Positions 1,233 through 12,806 of a stretch of DNA of 28,542 nucleotides are shown here, piece by piece. A program made the position numbers and the translations under genes. The notes beneath the pieces are model-generated. The model did not search any database and was not told where the DNA came from. It saw nothing but the letters and a program-made list of their open reading frames with translations. Source of the DNA: Candidatus Bathyarchaeota archaeon (GTDB lineage: Archaea > Thermoproteota > Bathyarchaeia > Bathyarchaeales > Bathycorpusculaceae); assembly GCA_030628925.1 (NCBI GenBank), contig DAOVQA010000001.1, positions 1 through 28,542 on the forward strand, given 5' to 3'. The first letter of the stretch is position 1. Each line of letters starts with the position of its first letter.

Positions 1233-2420
1233 TCAATCTACTAGGTTGTGCTGTTTATGCCTATTTAAAATATCATCAGCAAGTTTGTCTAGTGCCCTGA
1301 AATCATCTTCCCTCGGAAAGCCTTTTATGACAACAGGTTCAAGTAACTCAACCTTTAAGTTAGACAGCATCCCCGTGATTTGTTCCACCATTCTGCCACC
1401 CCAGCCATAAGATCCTATTATTGACGCAAACTTCACCTTCGGCCTTAAGGCATTTGCAAGATAGGCCGCATAAACAACATTTGGATGCGGTCCAACTAAG
1501 ACTGTAGGGGAACCTATTACGATTGTAGCAGCATCCACCAAGGCCATTGCCAATTTTCCAATGTCTGTTCCAGCTAAGTCAAACTGCTTCACGGTTACGC
1601 CTTTTTCGACTAAAACACCAACAAAGTATTCCACCATCTTCTTAGTACTACCGTGCATTGAAATATAAGGCAATACAACGATGTTTTTAGGCGGAGCGTA
1701 AGCCCAATCCCTGTATGCTTGAAGTATAAACTCTGGGTTATCATAGATGGGGCCGTGGCTGGGTGCTATCACGTCTATTTGCAAATCTTTTATTTTCTCT
1801 AAATTCTTCTGAATTACTGTTCTAAAAGGCATCATGATTTCTGCGTAATACCTTTTTGCCGCCTCGTAGACTGTTGCTTCATCAGTAACATACAAGTCAG
1901 ACGTTGCAAAATGGGAACCAAACAAATCGCAGGTGAAAAGCATTTTATCTTCTCTTAAGTATGTGAGCATTGTCTCTGGCCAATGAACCCAAGGAGCATG
2001 GATAAACTCTAACGTTTTATTCCCTAATGACAGTGTTCCCCTATCTTCTACAGGCTTGATTTTGCTTTCAGAGATTAGAAGCAAGTCCATGAGCAGATTT
2101 TTACATTTAGGTGTTGCAACGACCATCGCGTCTGGATATACCTTCAATATTTGAGGCAGTGCTCCTGAATGGTCTTGTTCCGCATGATTTGCAACTACAT
2201 AATCTATTGTTTTAACGTCCAGCTGACTCAGGTTGTTTATCAATTCATTTGCCATAGTTGGATCAACAGTGTCTATCAAAGCCGTTTTTTCACTGCCCTT
2301 AATTAGATAAGCGTTATAACTTGTCCCATCAGGAAGCGGAATAAGTTCATCAAAAAGTCGCCTATCCCAATCAACCGCTCCAACCCAGTAAACATCTTTT
2401 TTTAATTTTCTTGGTTTCAT
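1233..2420 (-). CDS. fprA: Flavodiiron protein (FprA / A-type flavoprotein)
   Basis: GTSYNAYLI, diiron motif NHAEQDHSG, HWPET, CDLFGSH, PSHG and a C-terminal flavodoxin domain with GSYGWGG. Confidence 0.96.
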   Translation of the reverse strand: MKPRKLKKDVYWVGAVDWDRRLFDELIPLPDGTSYNAYLIKGSEKTALIDTVDPTMANELINNLSQLDVKTIDYVVANHAEQDHSGALPQILKVYPDAMVVATPKCKNLLMDLLLISESKIKPVEDRGTLSLGNKTLEFIHAPWVHWPETMLTYLREDKMLFTCDLFGSHFATSDLYVTDEATVYEAAKRYYAEIMMPFRTVIQKNLEKIKDLQIDVIAPSHGPIYDNPEFILQAYRDWAYAPPKNIVVLPYISMHGSTKKMVEYFVGVLVEKGVTVKQFDLAGTDIGKLAMALVDAATIVIGSPTVLVGPHPNVVYAAYLANALRPKVKFASIIGSYGWGGRMVEQITGMLSNLKVELLEPVVIKGFPREDDFRALDKLADDILNRHKQHNLVD

Positions 2421-2421
2421 T

Positions 2422-2583
2422 TTATTCTACCTTTTCAAACTGATCTTTTGTTGCTCCGCAAAGTGGGCAGACCCAGTCATCCGGTAGTTCTTCAAACGGA
2501 GTTACCGGTTTTACGCCAGAGTCAGAATCACCCTTTTCCGGGTCGTATATATACCCACAAACAACACATTTGTATTTAGCCAT
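2422..2583 (-). CDS. Rubredoxin
   Basis: [10 protein letters not shown]...WVCPLCGA. The start is placed at ATG 2583 (MAKYK), preceded by a GTAGGTGA RBS, rather than at 2613. Confidence 0.96.
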
Positions 2584-2609
2584 TTTTTCACCTACATTCA
2601 CTTGACGTA

Positions 2610-3026
2610 TCATTCTTTTACATGCTTTAGATTATAGCTTATTTTCACGCCGGCCTGCTCGAAAAGTTTTCCAACTGGACAGTTTTTACGAGTTAGTTCA
2701 AAGATTCTATGAATTCTATTCTCGCTAACATCGCTTTTCACGGTTATGTTAAATTCTGCAGAGGCTATTGTGCCAGTTTCTTCCGATTTTTTGGCGCGTA
2801 GCTCAACTTCCAAGTCCTTCAGTTGAATTCTCATCTTCTTTGCAGTCAACGAAAAAATGGTGGCAAAACATCCAGAGAAGCTCATAACTCCAAGCTCTAA
2901 GGCGGTAGGCCCCATGTCTGTGCCAAGTTCGGCTGGTAGATCCAAACAAAGGCTGTGAGCTCTTCCATTATCAACCGCCACCCTTAAATCCTTTATCAGT
3001 TTAGCCTTCGAAGTTATAACAGCCAA
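2610..3026 (-). CDS. OsmC/Ohr/YcaO-like (OsmC family) protein
   Basis: GPTALEL...SGCFAT and KNCPVG two-cysteine pattern; TTG start. Confidence 0.88.
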
Positions 3027-3084
3027 TCACTTAACATCCTTCTTATTTTGTTATCTTATAGACTATATTATCAAAAAGGGGAAA

Positions 3085-3741
3085 TTACGGTGGAAGTTTC
3101 TTCTTGCACAGGAACCAGTCTACGCATTCATAGCCTTCCTGTAAACGTTTTTCTGCTGCTTCCTGTGTTGCTGGTGGAGGAACTATTACGTCGTCTCCTG
3201 GGCGCCAATTTGCTGGAGCAGCCACTTTGTATTTGTCAGCAGTTTGCAAAGCATCTACGAGTCTTAAAATTTCCTGCATGTTCCTGCCAACATTTAGCGG
3301 GTAGTAAATCATGGCTCTTAGTTTCATTTCAGGATCAATTACAAAGACGCATCTGACGGCTGCGGTTGTGCTTTCGCTTGGGTGTATCATGCCGAAAAGA
3401 TTAGCAACTTTCATGTCCAAATCAGCTATTACTGGAAATGGTATTGTTATTCCAAACTTTTCTTTAATTTTTCTTGTCCAAGCAATATGCGAGAAGACGC
3501 TGTCGATGCTTAATCCTATTAGCTTCACGTTCCTTTTCAGCAATTCATCGCTTATCCTAGCGAACGCAACAAATTCTGTTGTACAAACTGGAGTAAAATC
3601 TGCAGGATGAGAAAACAGAATAACCCATTTCCCCTTGAAATCTGAAAGCCTTATTTTTCCATGAGTGGTAACTGCCTCAAAGTCTGGAACAGTTTCACCT
3701 AATCGCAAGAACGGTTTCTTCTCTTCAACTTTCTCTTCCAT
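3085..3741 (-). CDS. Peroxiredoxin (Prx6/archaeal type)
   Basis: [12 protein letters not shown] peroxidatic motif, YYPLNVGRN and C-terminal CVDWFLC. Likely start is ATG 3741. Confidence 0.96.
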
Positions 3742-3795
3742 TTTCCACACCTTTCATTCATATTTTAGGAACAAAATATTTTTATCTCAGAGCTT

Positions 3796-3810
3796 CTTAT
3801 ATATTTTTCG
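3796..3810 (-). promoter_or_regulatory. BRE-TATA promoter of the peroxiredoxin operon
   Basis: Minus strand reads CGAAAAA-TATATAAG about 55 bp upstream of the prx start. Confidence 0.65.
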
Positions 3811-3823
3811 TAGGATATTCGAC

Positions 3824-3840
3824 GATAAAAGGATAAATAA
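3824..3840 (+). promoter_or_regulatory. BRE-TATA promoter of the Lrp/Ptr2-like gene (probably leaderless)
   Basis: GATAAAAGG-ATAAATA at 3833-3839, 27 bp before the ATG. The ATAAATA box recurs upstream of other genes in the window (6909, 13345, 20889 on the minus strand). Confidence 0.55.
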
Positions 3841-3865
3841 GTACTAAAATAGGAAAACAATAACC

Positions 3866-4300
3866 ATGGTTGAAGTTGACGCATTAGACTTGAAGATTCT
3901 GAAAATGCTTCAAGAAAATGGAAGACATTCATTCACAGAAATGGCAGGAAAACTAAGGTTAAGCGAATCAACAATCAGAAAAAGGGTTCAATCGCTCCAA
4001 AAGAAGGAGATTATAAAGAAATTCACCGTCGAGATCGACCCATCTAAAATAGGGATTCGTACTACCGCGATAGTTGGAGTTGACGTAGATCCAACGGAGC
4101 TTTTGGAGACAGCTCAAAAGCTCTGTGAAATAAAAGAGATTCGCTCAGTAGCTATATCAACGGGCGACCACATGATTATGACGGAAATATGGACTAGGGA
4201 TGGGCGAGAACTCACAAGGCTGATTTCCGAAAAAATTGGAGCAATTGAGGGTGTTAAAAAAATCTGCCCAGCAATAATATTGGAAAAGCTAAAAAGTTGA
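3866..4300 (+). CDS. ptr2: Lrp/AsnC family transcription factor, Ptr2-like
   Basis: N-terminal HTH (LSESTIRKRV) plus a RAM domain. The segments STGDHMIMTEIW.RDG and KIG.IEG.KKICPAIILE match, from memory, Methanocaldococcus jannaschii Ptr2; orthology needs confirming by alignment. Confidence 0.85.
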   Translation: MVEVDALDLKILKMLQENGRHSFTEMAGKLRLSESTIRKRVQSLQKKEIIKKFTVEIDPSKIGIRTTAIVGVDVDPTELLETAQKLCEIKEIRSVAISTGDHMIMTEIWTRDGRELTRLISEKIGAIEGVKKICPAIILEKLKS

Positions 4301-4316
4301 GTCTAACACACAAAAA

Positions 4317-6476
4317 TCAGGGCTTCCATCTTTTTAGCAGCATTGAGTTTCCAACAACTGTGATGTCGCTGAGTATCATCGTTGCCGCAGCGATTTCAGG
4401 TCTAACCAAAATACCGAGAGATGGATAGAGAACGCCTGCGGCTAACGGAATTGTTAGCATGTTATAGAAGAATGCCCAGAACAGGTTTTGTTTTATCTTC
4501 TGCAATGTCTTCTTGCTTAGGCTAATGCTTACTGCCACATCTCGTGGGTCGGCTTTGACTAGAACTATGTCTCCAGCTTCTATGGCAATATCTGTTCCGC
4601 CGCCAATGGCGATTCCTACGTTTGCTTGAGTGATTGCTGGTGCGTCATTTATTCCGTCGCCTACCATGGTAACGAATCTTCCTTCATTTTGCAGCTTCCT
4701 TATTTGCTCAACTTTTTCAGCTGGAAGAACCTCGGCTAAGACTTCATTGATGCCCAGCTGCTTTGCGATGGCTTCAGCTGTTCTTCTTGTGTCACCTGTA
4801 AGCATGACGACTTTTAGTCCCATCTTCTGAAGCCTTTCCACAGCGACTTTAGAGTGTTCTTTAATAGTGTCAGAAACAGCCAACAGTCCAACTGCTTTTC
4901 CGTCAGTAGCCACGATTAATACGGTTTTACCTTCTTTTTCCAGTCTCTCAATGTGGTCCTCTAACTTCTCTACTGCCACTTTACGGTTTCTCATTAATGC
5001 ACGGTTTCCAAGCAAGATATTCTTCCGTTCGAACTTTACCGTCACACCAAGTCCAGGCAATGCCTCAAAAGAATTTGGTTCAAGGACCTCAATTCCTTCA
5101 CTTTCAGCTTTTTTAACAATTGCTTCGCCAACTGGATGCTCAGACCTTTTCTCTGCAACAGCAGCGATTTTCAAAACGTGTTGCTTGTCTTCAGCGACAA
5201 TGTCTGTGATTTCCAACTCGCCTTTAGTCAATGTGCCAGTCTTGTCGAAAACAACAGTGTCAATTTTTTTCACAACCTCCAGCACTGCACTGTTTTTAAT
5301 CAGAACCCCATTTTCTGCTCCCTTGCCAACGCCAATCATGATTGCGGCAGGTGTTGCTATGCCTAAGGCGCATGGACAAGCGATTACCAAGACAGAAACG
5401 AGAGTAGTTAAGGCTAGTATTTCATTCTGAAAGAAGGAGAACCAAATCGCAAATGCTCCAACAGCAATAACGATAACTATAGGAACGAAAAAGTTAACAA
5501 CTTTATCAGCGAGCCTTTGGATCGGTGCCTTACTTGCCTGCACTTCACGGGTCAACCTCACAATCTGAGCTAGAGTTGTTTCCTTTCCAACCTTCACTGC
5601 CCCAAACTTCAAAGTGCCAGCTTTGTTAACCGTTCCACCAAAAACGGTGTCTCCAACGTTCTTCTCAACTGGAACAGATTCACCAGTTATCATTGATTCA
5701 TCTATGAACGAATGTCCTTTGACTACAACGCCGTCAACAGGAATTTTTTCTCCAGGTCTAACGATCACAATGTCGTTGACCTCAACTTCTTCAACTGAAA
5801 CTTCTCTCTCGCTTCCATCCTGCACTATAATAGCGGTTTTAGGTTGAAGCTCCATAAGTTTCTTAATTGTTTCTCCGGTTTTTTCAACAGCCATCTCTTC
5901 TAATAGCATGCCGAGAGTTATAGTAGTGATCACAACGGCTGAAGCTTCGTAAAAAACTGGGGCGTTAATGAAGACTGTTGAGAACAATGAATAAAAATAA
6001 GCGGCTGAAGCGCTTAAGGCGACAAGCACGTTCATGTCGGCAAACCTGTTTTTAAGTGAATTGTACGCGCCTTTGTAGAAGTGCCACCCTACGATAAACT
6101 GGATTGGAGTTGTTAGAACCAACAACAGAAGATTCTTTTCAGGGAAAAACAGAAAATATGTAATGGCAACTATTGGAATTGTTAGGGCAAGCCCAAAAAA
6201 GAAAAGCATCAACTTTCTCTTCATTACTTTCCTGCGCCTGTCAGCAGACAGGCCTTCTACTTGTTCCACAGCTTCGTATCCAGTTCTCTTAACAGTTGTC
6301 TTTATCTTTTCAATGTTTGTCTTGTCCGAATTGAATCTTACAATGACTTCTTTGGACGCGAAATTCACTTTGGCTTCTGTGATTCCGTCAAGTTTTGATA
6401 AATTATTTTCAATTCGTTGTGCGCATGCGGGGCAGTGCATCCCAAGGATTTGAAGGATAACTTCTTGCTCTTTCAT
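4317..6476 (-). CDS. copA: Heavy-metal P1B-type ATPase, Cu(I)-exporter type
   Basis: N-terminal HMA domain (GMHCPAC), TGES, CPC (IACPCALG), DKTGT, HP, GDGIND, TM YN and MxxS motifs. Confidence 0.93.
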
Positions 6477-6874
6477 TTACGAGACCTTCTAACCGTTATT
6501 AATTGGCAAATTCCGCATTTTTCAATGTCTATTGTTGGGTCAAATGCTTTATGCAATTTGCACATTAAGCCTTTTTCTCTAATTGTACTGCAGATTTCGC
6601 AAAACATAGAGATGAAGTCTTTAAGCGGTAAGTTTCCTTTGGCTAAGGATGCTGCTAGGTTTTCTATCAAGTTTGTAATATCACTTTCGTTTTTCAAATC
6701 AATTGCTTTTCCACGCTTCTTTCTGAAGTAGAGACTTATGGCGGGTTGACTGACTCCGAGAAGCTTGGCTGTTTCCACTTGTTTTAGTTTATGTTTTGTC
6801 ATGAGTTCTTCGGCTATCATGGCTCGAACTGCAGGTAATACGCATTTTACTGCAACTTCGCAAGGAACCAACAT
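6473..6874 (-). CDS. Cys-rich archaeal HTH transcriptional regulator (COG2522-like)
   Basis: PCE..VK.VLPAVRA N-terminus, HTH ([18 protein letters not shown]) and C-terminal CxxC-x9-CxxH...CxxC. Overlaps the copA start by 4 nt. Confidence 0.85.
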
Positions 6875-6920
6875 TAAGATACACTTCAGTTATAGTTTGC
6901 AGAAACGCATAAATAAAAGT

Positions 6921-6936
6921 TATTACAATTGTAATA
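6921..6936. promoter_or_regulatory. Perfect 16-bp palindrome TATTACAATTGTAATA, candidate operator between divergent promoters
   Basis: Exact inverted repeat read from the sequence, immediately downstream of the ATAAATA box (6909-6915) in the 86-bp divergent gap. Confidence 0.7.
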
Positions 6937-6961
6937 TTAAACAAGTAATTGGCGATTAAAA

Positions 6962-8185
6962 ATGATGGAAAATAAGAAGAACATGCTGAGAGAACTGATC
7001 AAGCAGTTACATGCTGGGGTGTCACCGTTAGAAGTTAAGGAAAGGTTTAAACAAGTTTTGGAGGGTGTAACCCCTTTAGAAATCAGCAAGATTGAACAAG
7101 AGCTCATTGAGGAAGGAATGCCCAGAGAGGAAATTCAAAGGTTATGCGACGTTCACCTAGCCGTTTTCAGGGAACAACTAGACAAACAAAAACTGGACAT
7201 TCCTGTTGGACATCCAATCAGCATTCTCATGGAAGAGCATAAGATTATGTTGCGACTTGCAGAAAAACTTGAAGCCATTGCTAATAAGGTTCAACAAGCC
7301 AGCGACATAAGTTACGTCAGCGACGAAATACATAGTCTCGAACATATAGCAGAAGACTTTCAGGACTCAGAAAAACACTATTTGCGAGAAGAAAACGTGC
7401 TTTTCCCTGTTCTGGAAAAACATGGGATCACAGGGCCACCTTCAATAATGTGGACGGAGCACAGCCAGATTAGAGAGAAAAAGAAGGAACTTCACAATAT
7501 AACTGAAAACCTTGACACTCTAAAATTTCAAGATTTTAAGGATCAACTGGGTGACATCGCTGGAGCTTTAGGCACCCTTCTTTCGAGTCATTTTTTCAAG
7601 GAGAGTAACATACTTTTTCCTACAGCTTTACAAGTGATTACAGACAATCAGTGGAAAGAAATTAGAAAGGAATTCGATGAAATTGGATATTGTTGTTTTA
7701 CGCCCACACAGGTGATTGCAATGCGAACCGAAGAAGTTAAAAAGCAAAAAATTGAAGAAGCAATTGAGGCTGAAGGGATGTTACAGTTTGAAACTGGTTC
7801 TCTTTCGAAAGAGGAAGTTGAGGCTGTCTTAGATTCGCTTCCAGTTGACATATCATTTATCGACAAAGAAGACCGTGTAAAATACTTCAACAAGGCTGAG
7901 AAAAGAATTTTTGTTCGAACAAAGGCGGTTATCGGAAGAAAAGTGCAACTATGCCATCCACAGAAAAGCGTTCACATTGTTAATAATATCCTTGAAGCGT
8001 TCAAAACAGGCAAGAAAGATGTAGCGGAATTCTGGATTAATCTGAATAGTCGTCTAATTCACATAAGATACTTCGCAGTAAGAGACAAAAACGGAAAATA
8101 TTTGGGAACTACAGAAGTAACACAAGATATAACTGACATCAAAAAAATCAAAGGACAAAAAAGACTCCTGGACTGGAAAACCTAG
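6962..8185 (+). CDS. DUF438 + hemerythrin-like + PAS_10 domain protein
   Basis: N-terminal LCDVH (DUF438), hemerythrin-like EEH / HYLREENVLFP / EH / HFFKESNILFP, and C-terminal PAS with GRKVQLCHPQKS. Confidence 0.9.
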   Translation: MMENKKNMLRELIKQLHAGVSPLEVKERFKQVLEGVTPLEISKIEQELIEEGMPREEIQRLCDVHLAVFREQLDKQKLDIPVGHPISILMEEHKIMLRLAEKLEAIANKVQQASDISYVSDEIHSLEHIAEDFQDSEKHYLREENVLFPVLEKHGITGPPSIMWTEHSQIREKKKELHNITENLDTLKFQDFKDQLGDIAGALGTLLSSHFFKESNILFPTALQVITDNQWKEIRKEFDEIGYCCFTPTQVIAMRTEEVKKQKIEEAIEAEGMLQFETGSLSKEEVEAVLDSLPVDISFIDKEDRVKYFNKAEKRIFVRTKAVIGRKVQLCHPQKSVHIVNNILEAFKTGKKDVAEFWINLNSRLIHIRYFAVRDKNGKYLGTTEVTQDITDIKKIKGQKRLLDWKT

Positions 8186-8609: not shown

Positions 8610-8934
8610 CAGTGCAAAAGGAGTGATGAAATCTTGGAAAACCAGATGTCTCAAAGTCCACTTTACAATATTCCGACATTGGAAGGGTACAATGGAATAT
8701 CACCGCACCCGCGATCTCCTGTACGTAAAGCAGATCCTTGGACACAAAAGCATCCAGAACACAATGATATATATCCAATATGAAAAAGCACTCTTTGGAA
8801 CACCGGTGAATGAGGAGTTTACAGTCAAAGTCGCCACAAACATACAAGAAGCATACGCGCTTGCAGAAGTCAGCTTCGAATAGGTCACCGGAGAATACAA
8901 TGACGGCGGCAAAATCTTCAGGAAACAAAAATAA
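8610..8934 (+). pseudogene. Decayed tyrosine recombinase/integrase (C-terminal remnant)
   Basis: Reads ...FRHWKGTMEYHRTRDLLYVKQILGHKSIQNTMIY (RH, LGH and catalytic Tyr retained; the His of HxxR reads as Thr). After the in-frame TAG at 8881-8883 the frame continues VTGEYNDGGKIFRKQK* to 8934, resembling the usual integrase tail. No N-terminal half is recognisable. Confidence 0.85.
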
Positions 8935-9013
8935 AAAGTACTAAGGTTCGTTAAGAAAAGGGTAAGGTTTATTCGAGTGAAAAGACATTCTGCATGATGC
9001 TCCGCGTAGTAGG

Positions 9014-9115
9014 GCTCCGGTAGAAGAGTTTAATCAGCTCTACCGAATATAGCCCGGTTAAGTATTCCGGCCTTTCGAGCCGAAGACCCGGGTTCGAATC
9101 CCGGCCGGAGCACCA
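9014..9115 (+). tRNA. tRNA-Glu(UUC) with a 24-nt intron (9024-9047) between positions 10 and 11; CCA encoded
   Basis: Spliced sequence GCTCCGG TA GTA TAGCCCGGTTAAG TAT T CCGGC CTTTCGA GCCGA AGAC CCGGG TTCGAAT CCCGG CCGGAGC A CCA folds as a cloverleaf; anticodon TTC at 9074-9076; one C27-A43 mismatch. The intron forms a bulge-helix-bulge-type motif. Confidence 0.93.
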
Positions 9116-9265: not shown

Positions 9266-10801
9266 ATGGCTGAATCATTGGCTTCAAATTATAAAAAACT
9301 AATGGAAAAAGCAAAAAATCTCTTCATCCTACAGTCAGCAGCTGCAATCGTCCACTGGGACATGGAAACAAAGATGCCGCCTAAGGCAATTAGACTAAGA
9401 AGCCTACAGCTTGCTATGCTCAGTAAAATCGGACACAAAATGAGCACAGATCCTGAAATTGGAAAATTATTGGAAGAAATCATGCGACACCCAGAATACA
9501 ATAGTTTTAATGCTGTACAAAAGAGAAACGCATACCTAATTAAGAAGCACTATGATGAACAAACCAAGCTTCCCGAAGAACTTGTCGTTGAAACCGCAAA
9601 ACAACAAGCCATAACTATTGATATATGGAAGAAAGCGAAAGCCGCCAAAAACTTCTCTATGTTTAAGCCTGAACTTGAAAAGCTTCTCGACTTGAGAAAA
9701 AGAGCAGCAGAAATACTGATGAAAGTGAAAGAGACATCAACACCATACGATGCACTAGTAGACATTTTTGAACCGAAGATGAAAGCGGAATCAATCAGCA
9801 AAGTCTTCGCAGAACTAAGACAAGGCTTGATCTCGCTCATAAGGAAATGTGAGGTGGCTCCAAACCAGCCAGACATATCCATTCTGGAACGTCGAGTTCC
9901 CATTAACGTCCAACGTAGAATTGCGGGATCACTTGCTGAGTTCATCGGATATGACGTAAAGTCAAAGGAAGCTGGAGGTAGGATTGATGAGACCGAACAT
10001 CCTTTCACAACAGGATACTACGATGATGTGCGAATCACAACACACTACTACGAAGATAACTTCGCATCATCCATATTCTCAGTCCTGCACGAGGGAGGTC
10101 ACGCCCTTTATGAACAAAATCTAAAGCAAGAATGGATTTTCCAGCCAGTCGGCAAAGCATGCTCCTCAGGCTTCCATGAATCACAATCACGATCCATAGA
10201 AAACATAATAGGGAGATCACACGAATTCTGGAGCTACTTCCTGCCAAAACTCAAAGAACTCACAGGCAGCGTTCTTTCAGACGTGGACCTAGATAGGTTC
10301 GTTCACGCTGTTAACCAGGTCAAACCATCCAAGATTCGTGTTGAAGCAGACGAGGTCACCTATTGCCTTCACATCATTGTAAGATTCAACCTGGAACAAA
10401 GCTTGTTCGCTGACAAAATAACAGTAGCTGAACTTCCGCAAGTTTGGAACCAAACCTATAAGGAATATTTTGGTGTGGACATCGAAAACGATTCTGAAGG
10501 TGTCATGCAGGATATCCATTGGGCCAGCGGCGCATTCGGTTATTTCCCAAGCTATGCGCTAGGCAACATTTACAGCGGACAAATACTGGCTAACATGGAA
10601 AAAGAACTACCAAACTGGAAATCCCAACTCTCAAACGGCAACTTCCAAAACACAATACAGTGGTTAGCCAAAAATGTGCACAGCTACGGAAACCTCTACG
10701 ATCCACCAGACTTGATTAAAAGAATCACTGGGGAAGAACTAAACGTTAAACCATACTTCAATTATCTAAACAAGAAGTATTCGGAACTCTATGGCTTCTA
10801 A
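9266..10801 (+). CDS. Carboxypeptidase, M32 family (Taq-type)
   Basis: HEXXH (LHEGGH), HESQS, IRVEADE, QDIHW and GYFPSYALG motifs; 511 aa. Confidence 0.96.
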   Translation: MAESLASNYKKLMEKAKNLFILQSAAAIVHWDMETKMPPKAIRLRSLQLAMLSKIGHKMSTDPEIGKLLEEIMRHPEYNSFNAVQKRNAYLIKKHYDEQTKLPEELVVETAKQQAITIDIWKKAKAAKNFSMFKPELEKLLDLRKRAAEILMKVKETSTPYDALVDIFEPKMKAESISKVFAELRQGLISLIRKCEVAPNQPDISILERRVPINVQRRIAGSLAEFIGYDVKSKEAGGRIDETEHPFTTGYYDDVRITTHYYEDNFASSIFSVLHEGGHALYEQNLKQEWIFQPVGKACSSGFHESQSRSIENIIGRSHEFWSYFLPKLKELTGSVLSDVDLDRFVHAVNQVKPSKIRVEADEVTYCLHIIVRFNLEQSLFADKITVAELPQVWNQTYKEYFGVDIENDSEGVMQDIHWASGAFGYFPSYALGNIYSGQILANMEKELPNWKSQLSNGNFQNTIQWLAKNVHSYGNLYDPPDLIKRITGEELNVKPYFNYLNKKYSELYGF

Positions 10802-11348: not shown

Positions 11349-12806
11349 ATGTCGGAACAGGATATAAAGAAGCCGGAAAACAAGGAGGAATTCACGAAAG
11401 TGTTAATGACCATCGCGAAAAAAGAGTCAGAAGCCCGCAGCTTCCTAAAGGGAAGGCCGACAAAACCTACAATTTCCGGCACAGCCAAATTGATGAACAT
11501 ACACAGAGATACTCTTTATACATGGCTTAAGGAGTTCAACGTCGACTTTAAAAGGATAGCTGACGTTGTATCGACAGCTCAAGCGATAGAAACTGTCGGA
11601 ACCCCTAGAAAGCATATCTATCTAATCGGAGAAGCTTTGATGGGACAGGGAAACGAGGTTGCCCACATAGACCTGTTAATAGGGGATAAAGAAGGCCCTG
11701 TCGGAGAAGCCTTCGCCACCGGCATATCCAACCTTTCCAAAGGACACACACCACTCCTAGCTGTTATACGACCAAACTTACCCCCTAAACCGCACACACT
11801 ACTTGTCCCAAAAGTCACCATAAAGAACACAGAAGACACAAACAAGATCTTTGGCCCAGCACAGGCAGCAGTCGCGAAGGCTGTTGCAGATTCTGTTGAA
11901 GAGGGACTAATTCCAAAAGACAAAGTAGATGATTGGGTCATAATATGCAGCGTTTTCATGCATCCAAAAGCAAAGGACTACCGAAAAATCTACCACTACA
12001 ATTATGGAGCAACCAAGCTAGCTCTGAAAAGAGCGTTAACAAACTATCCACCCTTAGAAAAGATCCTATATGACAAGGACAGAGCTAAACACCCGATAAT
12101 GGGATTCAAAGTGCCACGCCTATGGAGACCACCATACCTACAGATCGCACTCGACATACCAGATTTAAGACGAAACAAGAAAATCATAGCCTCACTTCCA
12201 AAGAGCGACAGAATAATACTTGAGATGGGTACACCCCTCATAAAAAGATATGGAACAAAAGTGATAAGCGAAATGAGAGAAGATGCCAGAGACTTATTCT
12301 TCGTTGCAGACCTAAAAACCCTAGATGTTGGTAAAGTTGAGGTTGACCTAGCCTACGAGGAAACAGCAGACGCAGTTGTTGCCGCCGGATTGGCACCCGT
12401 TGAAACATTAAATGCCTTTATCCACGAAGCAAAAAGACTTGGAATATACGCAGTGGTAGACATGTTAAATATGCAAGATCCAATCAGAAAACTCAGAATG
12501 CTTAAGGAATTCCCTGACATAGTGATTTTACACAGGGGAATAGATCAGGAAACCGGAAGAACCCTTGGCTTAGAACTCATTGAGGAACTACGGCAAGCCT
12601 TTAAGGACAGGAAATTCCTTATCGCCGTTGCAGGTGGAATAGTGCCGGAAACCGCAAAAGAAGCTCTACAAAAAGGAGCAGACATACTCATTGTTGGAAG
12701 GTTTGTGACACAATCTAGGGATGTTGAACGAGCTGTAAGAGAACTCCTTGAACTGACGCCTGAAATGCAAAAAGATATCGACTTATTCAGAGTACATGTA
12801 GAGTAA
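11349..12806 (+). CDS. fae-hps: Bifunctional formaldehyde-activating enzyme / 3-hexulose-6-phosphate synthase with an extra N-terminal HTH domain
   Basis: Fae motifs GEAL.G.GNEVAHIDLLIG and GPAQAAVAKAVADSV; Hps motifs LQIALD, E.GTPLIK, DLKTLD.G, HRGID and AVAGGI. Residues 1-89 form an extension containing TISGTAKLMNIHRDTLYTWLKEF. Confidence 0.93.
   Translation: MSEQDIKKPENKEEFTKVLMTIAKKESEARSFLKGRPTKPTISGTAKLMNIHRDTLYTWLKEFNVDFKRIADVVSTAQAIETVGTPRKHIYLIGEALMGQGNEVAHIDLLIGDKEGPVGEAFATGISNLSKGHTPLLAVIRPNLPPKPHTLLVPKVTIKNTEDTNKIFGPAQAAVAKAVADSVEEGLIPKDKVDDWVIICSVFMHPKAKDYRKIYHYNYGATKLALKRALTNYPPLEKILYDKDRAKHPIMGFKVPRLWRPPYLQIALDIPDLRRNKKIIASLPKSDRIILEMGTPLIKRYGTKVISEMREDARDLFFVADLKTLDVGKVEVDLAYEETADAVVAAGLAPVETLNAFIHEAKRLGIYAVVDMLNMQDPIRKLRMLKEFPDIVILHRGIDQETGRTLGLELIEELRQAFKDRKFLIAVAGGIVPETAKEALQKGADILIVGRFVTQSRDVERAVRELLELTPEMQKDIDLFRVHVE

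Follow-up and report, generated by a model that had tools for sequence, protein, structure and literature searches.

A conserved leader strand as a candidate stand-in for the 5' acceptor strand of early-intron tRNAs in Bathyarchaeia and other archaea

[quoted passage not shown] It is highly probable that the leader has some pairing role. Comparative and folding analyses further make it likely that its first six bases act in cis as a stand-in for the 5' acceptor strand while that strand is engaged in the splice motif of an intron located at position 10/11. In a broader sense, and with less assurance, we favour the view that archaea may have an undescribed and repeatedly evolved route in which a leader strand replaces the 5' acceptor strand, splicing comes first and RNase P acts last, and that the retention of introns between 3/4 and 10/11, those at 3/4 in Thermoproteales among them, may depend on this route. 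A placeholder strand had been one of two readings proposed when the sequence was first inspected by itself (the sequence-only reading). It is now well supported by comparative and folding evidence. The other reading, a relic att site, did not hold.

Organization of the tRNA-Glu gene and its splice motif

The window, by which we mean the whole 28,542-nucleotide stretch analysed and to which all positions refer, contains a Bathyarchaeia tRNA-Glu(UUC) gene at 9014-9115 (+ strand) with an intron between positions 10 and 11. Exon 1 (positions 1-10; 9014..9023, +) was delimited from the sequence and from the cloverleaf obtained after intron removal, the 24-nt intron occupies 9024..9047 (+), and exon 2 (positions 11-76, anticodon UUC; 9048..9115, +) was recognized by ARAGORN and Rfam RF00005. 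The 3' acceptor strand corresponds to 9105-9111 and the terminal ACCA is encoded at 9112-9115. ARAGORN detects the gene and puts the intron in the wrong place. Excision of 9024-9047 yields a 78-nt tRNA-Glu(UUC) cloverleaf with the 5' end GCTCCGGTAGTA. This bears out the earlier observation that a 13-mer of the leader equals mature positions 1-12 with one extra C. The 13-mer, GCTCCGCGTAGTA, lies at 8999-9011, begins 15 nt 5' of tRNA position 1 (9014), a distance that agrees with the one first given when counted start to start, and ends 2 nt (GG) before the tRNA. Within the leader, we distinguish the putative placeholder strand GCTCCG (8999..9004, +), which is complementary to C67-C72 of the tRNA (window 9106-9111) and probably provides the 5' bases of the transcript, from a variable spacer (9005..9013, +) whose GTAGTA resemblance to mature positions 7-12 is unconserved.

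[quoted passage not shown] C5-U8 (9018-9021) form the 5' side of the 4-bp central helix, in which C5G6G7U8 pair with the partner ACCG at 9042-9045. A9-G10 are the first two bases of one 3-nt bulge (AG|A) and 9046-9048 constitute the other (AA|U). The inner helix of the intron has 4 bp (9025-9028 with 9038-9041), and in the minimum free energy (MFE) fold the GG at the end of the spacer lengthens the outer helix (9012-9016 with 9051-9055) that involves the D-loop. Once the intron is taken out, a standard tRNA results, of the same type as the intron-less orthologues, which are joined at the same place. A gene for the PF01974 splicing endonuclease is present in the assembly of the window (G000) and two such genes were found in each of G001 and G759, which, as far as gene content can tell, suggests a two-subunit endonuclease in these complete relatives. 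Since C5, G6 and G7 belong both to the splice motif and to the mature acceptor stem, the two are mutually exclusive: the BHB of a 10/11 intron needs C5-U8 paired with the intron, which precludes the normal stem of 1-7 with 66-72.

Other features of the gene were also recorded. A C27-A43 mismatch (window 9068 and 9084) at the top of the anticodon stem is common to most Bathyarchaeia tRNA-Glu(UUC), and the U25-G30 strand could pair with the 3' acceptor strand as well, from which a misfold is predicted. DNA of the window was found in cold-seep and marine sediment runs.

Promoter and transcript start

The promoter of the tRNA gene consists of BRE and TATA elements at 8957..8977 (+), a segment which is also the probable att core of the integrase element. 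The TTTATT box is at 8968-8973, as had been noted, and the claim that transcription would start near the copy is supported by the spacing of this box. The distance from TATA to copy was 30.9±1.0 nt, compared with 44.6±2.9 nt from TATA to tRNA (n=86). The TATA box is thus spaced to the copy and not to the tRNA, and therefore the copy probably opens the transcript. The usual spacing of archaeal promoters would place the start at or beside G8999. A T is found immediately before the copy in the Glu and Met genes (90/98 for Glu). This base was considered as a partner of A73 and dropped, as it immediately precedes the predicted start (−1) and persists in genes without the intron, which is how an initiator pyrimidine would behave; the Lys GGC extension described below is the only one counted as pairing.

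Conservation of the leader copy among tRNA-Glu genes

Pooled relatives and a scan of all species genomes provided 98 distinct tRNA-Glu genes (UUC and CUC) with a 10/11 intron, whose hosts include Bathyarchaeia and Caldarchaeales/Nitrososphaeria (two classes). These counts include close kin and hence do not represent independent events. L140 (a chance match) and L144 (truncated) were left out of them, and the upstream match of L146 is the copy itself. GCTCCG, GCTCTG or GCTTCG was present within 26 nt of position 1 in all 98 genes, while a leader hexamer was found in 7/65 intron-less tRNA-Glu genes and a matching one in none of 35 control leaders of other tRNAs. By these sequence counts, the conservation of the hexamer portion of the copy is far beyond chance. 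The substitutions are solely C>T at positions 4 and 5, opposite G68 or G69, so wobble pairing, and with it the complementarity of the leader to 67-72, is kept. The start-to-start distance between copy and tRNA ranges from 9 to 24 nt and columns 8-13 vary. On the intron side, the partner tetramer is ACCG, GCCG or GCTG with its four pairs intact in 86/98 homologues. The homologous introns measure 16-38 nt, and their inner helices differ yet remain self-complementary.

The proposal that the copy spans the exon-exon junction has fared unevenly. The match is present in the window, and the GTAGTA tail is complete (6/6) in the genome of the window only, that is, in 1/98, with 5/6 in four others (shuffled-spacer expectations, 0.08 and 1.4, respectively); it is thus unconserved. 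In a related contig, recovered in two studies, G9009>A breaks the tail and leaves 8999-9004 intact. A metagenome scan for the copy followed by GTAGTA and the tRNA start gave 59 matches, none of them with a matching tRNA-Glu 3' arm downstream, and they were taken as chance.

Intron-less relatives retain the promoter and a leader, with the copy mostly decayed. In a 21-row tree built on the neighbouring gene they are nested among intron-bearing ones, with three changes of which at least two are forced. Intron loss followed by decay of the copy is the simplest reading of these sequence data. L233 (G048 C11:138780-139130), an intron-less tRNA-Glu gene with an integrase upstream and a leader nearly identical to that of the window, looks like a recent and precise intron loss. 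The retention of the hexamer in seven intron-less genes counts against the placeholder model. Separately, L098 and L139 are records titled Clostridia and Thorarchaeota that have Bathyarchaeia-like tRNA-Glu loci and are probably mis-binned contigs.

Complementary leaders in other tRNAs

As the Glu stem shows no variation, a test of covariation needs other tRNAs. In another order of Bathyarchaeia, tRNA-Met and tRNA-Lys have a 9/10 intron whose central helix uses positions 4-7. The Met leaders carry GGGCCC in 14/15 genes, vs. 0/16 controls without an early intron. The Lys leaders start with GGC-GGG in 38/42 genes and are complementary to C70-C75, including the G73 discriminator: the initial GGC faces C75-C74-G73, the letters facing G67-G69 are C or T in 106/114 cells, and the longest helix with 66-76 has a median of 10 bp (4 in controls). 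[quoted passage not shown] In a family of a further class, tRNA-Asp genes with a 3/4 intron have GCCCCGG or GCCTCGG in all seven distinct genes, compared with 0/13 of those without the intron, and one intron-less tRNA-Asp still has a long leader, in which a relic of the copy survives with one mismatch. A narrow phylum-wide pattern for the 3/4 intron gave 0/401 and a looser pattern then found such introns. The Asp family is probably Thermoproteaceae, as the passages of PMC4090602 dealing with intron positions report 3/4 for Thermoproteales.

The median duplex energies of the leader with its own 3' end were −15.9 (Glu), −20.6 (Lys), −18.7 (Asp), and −15.6 kcal/mol (Met), and those of control leaders ranged from −6.6 to −8.1 kcal/mol. 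Every set of leaders pairs best with its own 3' end, except for a tie of Met with the Lys 3' end, due to the fact that Met and Lys share the stem. Taken as a class, leaders complementary to their own 66/67-72 strand and located beside an intron at 3/4-10/11 were found in four tRNA types, at three intron positions and in three archaeal classes. Noted exceptions aside, D-loop and anticodon introns have no such leader.

Some further genes were observed in the course of this survey. In the Bathyarchaeia order with the Met and Lys introns, many tRNA genes have two to four introns (L248-L287; G759, G761, G762). The introns of two tRNA-Leu genes, L248 and L274 (G759), lie very early, and that of L274 fits position 8/9; L248 has GCGGGG about 21 nt upstream and L274 merely a 5-of-6 match about 33 nt upstream. 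L265 (G759 C30), a tRNA-Ser without an early intron, is preceded at about 23 nt by seven bases complementary to its 3' strand, which may be chance or a relic. L325 (G812 C1:159120-159440) is a tRNA with the 3' strand CCTCGGC and with GCCGAGG far 5' of the D arm, which would fit an intron at a very early position as well as a leader copy.

Folding and proposed order of maturation

In the MFE fold of 8999-9115 the hexamer pairs with 9106-9111 and the BHB hairpin is retained. A constrained comparison, with the anticodon and T arms fixed, was performed on 53 single-intron Glu precursors. The structure with placeholder and BHB lay below that with the true stem in 49/53 (median, −4.6 kcal/mol; window, −2.5 kcal/mol) and, when the copy was removed or replaced, the true, unspliceable stem won in 50/53 (median, +4.2 kcal/mol; window, +6.3 kcal/mol). 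In unconstrained ensembles the median probability of the central helix was 0.96 with the leader, 0.11 without it and 0.61 with the copy shuffled. In the unconstrained fold of the window the BHB helix forms even without the copy (0.96 vs. 0.98), because a misfold of the 3' half frees it. In the 3/4 Asp genes the BHB is likewise favoured without the copy, and therefore protection of the end may matter there as much as rescue of the BHB. After splicing, a two-dimensional model still prefers the stand-in (median, 3.5 kcal/mol; window, 1.6 kcal/mol), so its release would need tertiary folding, modification or trapping by RNase P.

We propose the following order of events. The transcript would begin with G8999 or a base adjacent to it, and the first structure to fold would be the BHB hairpin. 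The 3' strand, once made, would be captured by the leader, building a tRNA-like acceptor/T-arm helix from the transcript's own 5' end. A 3' strand captured in this way could not pull C5-U8 from the BHB, and RNase P would find no leader to cleave. After that, the intron would be removed by the splicing endonuclease and ligase. With the aid of the D-arm and tertiary contacts, the true 5' strand would displace the stand-in, and RNase P would cut off the 15-nt leader, thereby making the strand exchange irreversible. The net effect would be to force splicing ahead of 5' trimming. In M. kandleri, ends are trimmed before splicing (PMC3695527). That order, as a default, would strip the leader first, and the stand-in would therefore reverse it for early introns.

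Alternatively, the leader could be a platform for end protection or processing, pairing with the 3' strand to give a tRNA-like acceptor helix while the BHB forms anyway; stability, 3' trimming or CCA handling, hiding of the CCA, or denial of a substrate to RNase P could each be its role. The coverage of G73-C75 by the Lys leaders is in line with it, as are the inhibition of bacterial RNase P by leader pairing with 3'-RCCA (PMC9433436) and the copy-independent BHB of the window's unconstrained fold and of the Asp set. Nevertheless, the flip of 50/53 Glu precursors to the unspliceable stem on removal of the copy, together with the fall of the central-helix median from 0.96 to 0.11 and the lack of such leaders at D-loop and anticodon introns, makes this explanation unlikely in our opinion.

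It could also be argued that a tandem duplication affecting the tRNA 5' end, perhaps at the arrival of the intron, left the copy behind as a neutral relic, or that the copy reflects a preference for initiator sequences. A duplication origin is plausible, a few copies resemble mature positions 7-13 (L001, L006, L007, L147, L154), and the copy coincides with the start site, which favours a pyrimidine-purine step. However, six bases have been kept across two classes while the adjoining spacer drifted in length and sequence, all changes are wobble-compatible, the Lys GGC extension is no part of a 5' end, and intron-less genes start with different sequences behind an identical promoter. As an account of the maintenance of the copy, the relic is already contradicted, and overall we hold it to be very unlikely.

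The upstream integrase remnant and its attachment site

The C-terminal remnant of a tyrosine integrase (8623..8934, +) was identified by three-frame translation, with a match to PF00589 (E 6e-4) that lies under the curated cut-off. It has an in-frame stop at 8881-8883 and its last stop at 8932-8934, in accordance with the earlier statement that it ends 64 bp upstream, and frameshifted pieces are found farther upstream. This proximity, the match of the window copy across the exon junction, and L233, whose intron-less gene combines an integrase and a near-identical leader, speak for the copy as a relic att site left by an element whose target was the gene without its intron. Against this, an integrase was detected upstream at only 4/98 copy-bearing loci and at none of the remaining 94, and conservation of the copy in the absence of an integrase is the outcome that the sequence-only reading had itself named as fatal to the att site. 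Moreover, L016, L191, L222 and L247 are integrase-flanked, intron-less genes without a copy. No partner of the leader copy was found in the window's own assembly (G000, 79% complete), and the junction match is private to the genome of the window.

The genome that contains L233 (G048, of the same family and 100% complete) is informative about the actual target. There, the tRNA-Glu gene and its usual upstream neighbour lie on either side of a 12.3-kb element. The element is flanked by a 21-bp direct repeat consisting of the BRE/TATA promoter (C11:126618 and 138899; L384, L388); at the far end the repeat is followed by unrelated sequence, with no leader copy. In the window, the equivalent of this repeat is 8957-8977, and likeness to integrase-free relatives begins at 8958. 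G001, G004 and G872 yielded no orthologue of the upstream gene, and hence the assignment of the promoter as att site comes from one complete example (G048) and the boundary at 8958. The integrase family thus appears to dock in the tRNA promoter and not in the tRNA body. The copy is neither repeated at both ends of the element nor tied to the integrase, which leaves the att reading extremely unlikely. The remnant is real yet incidental, a neighbour and not the source of the leader copy. The locus no longer supports the idea that tRNA introns shield against integration, with which it had been said to fit, because the element appears to dock in the promoter, beyond the reach of any intron. Finally, there is next to no chance that the true exon 1 is the upstream copy, followed by a longer intron (12/13) extending to about 9049, as the resemblance of the copy to mature 1-12 in the window is offset by an extra C, by a seventh base that is G in 76/98 genes and not G in 22/98, by an eighth that is T in just 20/98, and by the lack of a fitting BHB that yields a proper tRNA.

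Upstream of the remnant, 1233-8185 encodes redox and metal stress functions (flavodiiron-like, peroxiredoxin, AsnC regulator, heavy-metal P-type ATPase, DUF438-hemerythrin-PAS) that may be cargo of the element, the left end of which is off the contig. Behind the tRNA gene are an M32 carboxypeptidase (9266-10801) and an HTH-Fae-HUMPS fusion (11349-12806; formaldehyde-activating enzyme/hexulose-phosphate synthase-like). Other integrase remnants in G000 were located at C36:816-956, C153:3-257, C74:158-415 and C117:2059-2337; they end just 5' of a tRNA-Arg (C36) or of a 5S-rRNA-like gene (C153, C74).

Relation to known tRNA gene arrangements

Non-canonical tRNA introns are usually put down to relaxed endonucleases alone. 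This leaves unsolved the folding conflict of introns at 3/4-10/11, in which splice signal and acceptor stem share bases. If the placeholder model is true, a conserved strand standing in for the 5' one would resolve it in a general way, in four tRNA types and three archaeal classes. The model makes a prediction as to which comes first, splicing or cleavage by RNase P, and would explain long leaders and mis-annotated genes such as the present one, in which ARAGORN misplaces the intron. The 3/4 tRNA-Asp case would probably correspond to a cultivable family.

Archaeal tRNA introns include the extreme 3/4 position in Thermoproteales (PMC4090602, citing Sugahara 2008). With the non-canonical BHB/HBh' introns described there, the intron of the window shares the 4-bp central helix, the two 3-nt bulges, the inner helix and an endonuclease gene in the genome; it differs in that 9/10 and 10/11 are not among the positions named in the sections of PMC4090602 drawn on here. 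The reviews and passages searched on non-canonical introns make no mention of a leader helper strand. In the literature searched as a whole no description of such a leader was found, and Marck and Grosjean (2003) or Sugahara (2008) may mention it.

As in the split tRNAs of Nanoarchaeum, Caldivirga and Aeropyrum (PMC3218864, PMC4033280), pairing by a non-tRNA leader or trailer would make the precursor spliceable. In split tRNAs the leader and the trailer pair in trans, build the inner BHB helix, and the leader is removed by the endonuclease. The leader of the window would pair in cis with the mature 3' acceptor strand, outside the BHB, and would presumably be removed by RNase P; moreover, this is a single contiguous gene with one promoter. 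Circularly permuted tRNAs (C. merolae, Thermofilum pendens; PMC3218864) also have an odd spacing between promoter and tRNA and are spliced before the acceptor-stem ends mature, the order proposed here. Unlike them, the gene of the window has the normal order and no circular intermediate, and its upstream piece copies the 5' strand and lies outside the mature tRNA. Bacterial leaders that pair with 3'-RCCA (PMC9433436) are similar in that pairing between the leader and the 3' end is what hinders cleavage on the 5' side, as predicted here, but one or two bases extend the true stem in that case, whereas 6-10 bases replace the 5' strand in leaders of the present type, which are linked to introns. 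As for elements that target tRNA genes (SSV-type; the tRNA-Thr fragment of Caldiarchaeum, PMC3293823), an integrase gene adjoins a tRNA gene here too, but the repeat is the 21-bp promoter upstream of the leader and the copy is outside it. In families of another class, L382, L383, L359 and L379 are tRNA-Asp/Glu 5' pieces without a 3' half, which may be split genes or att fragments.
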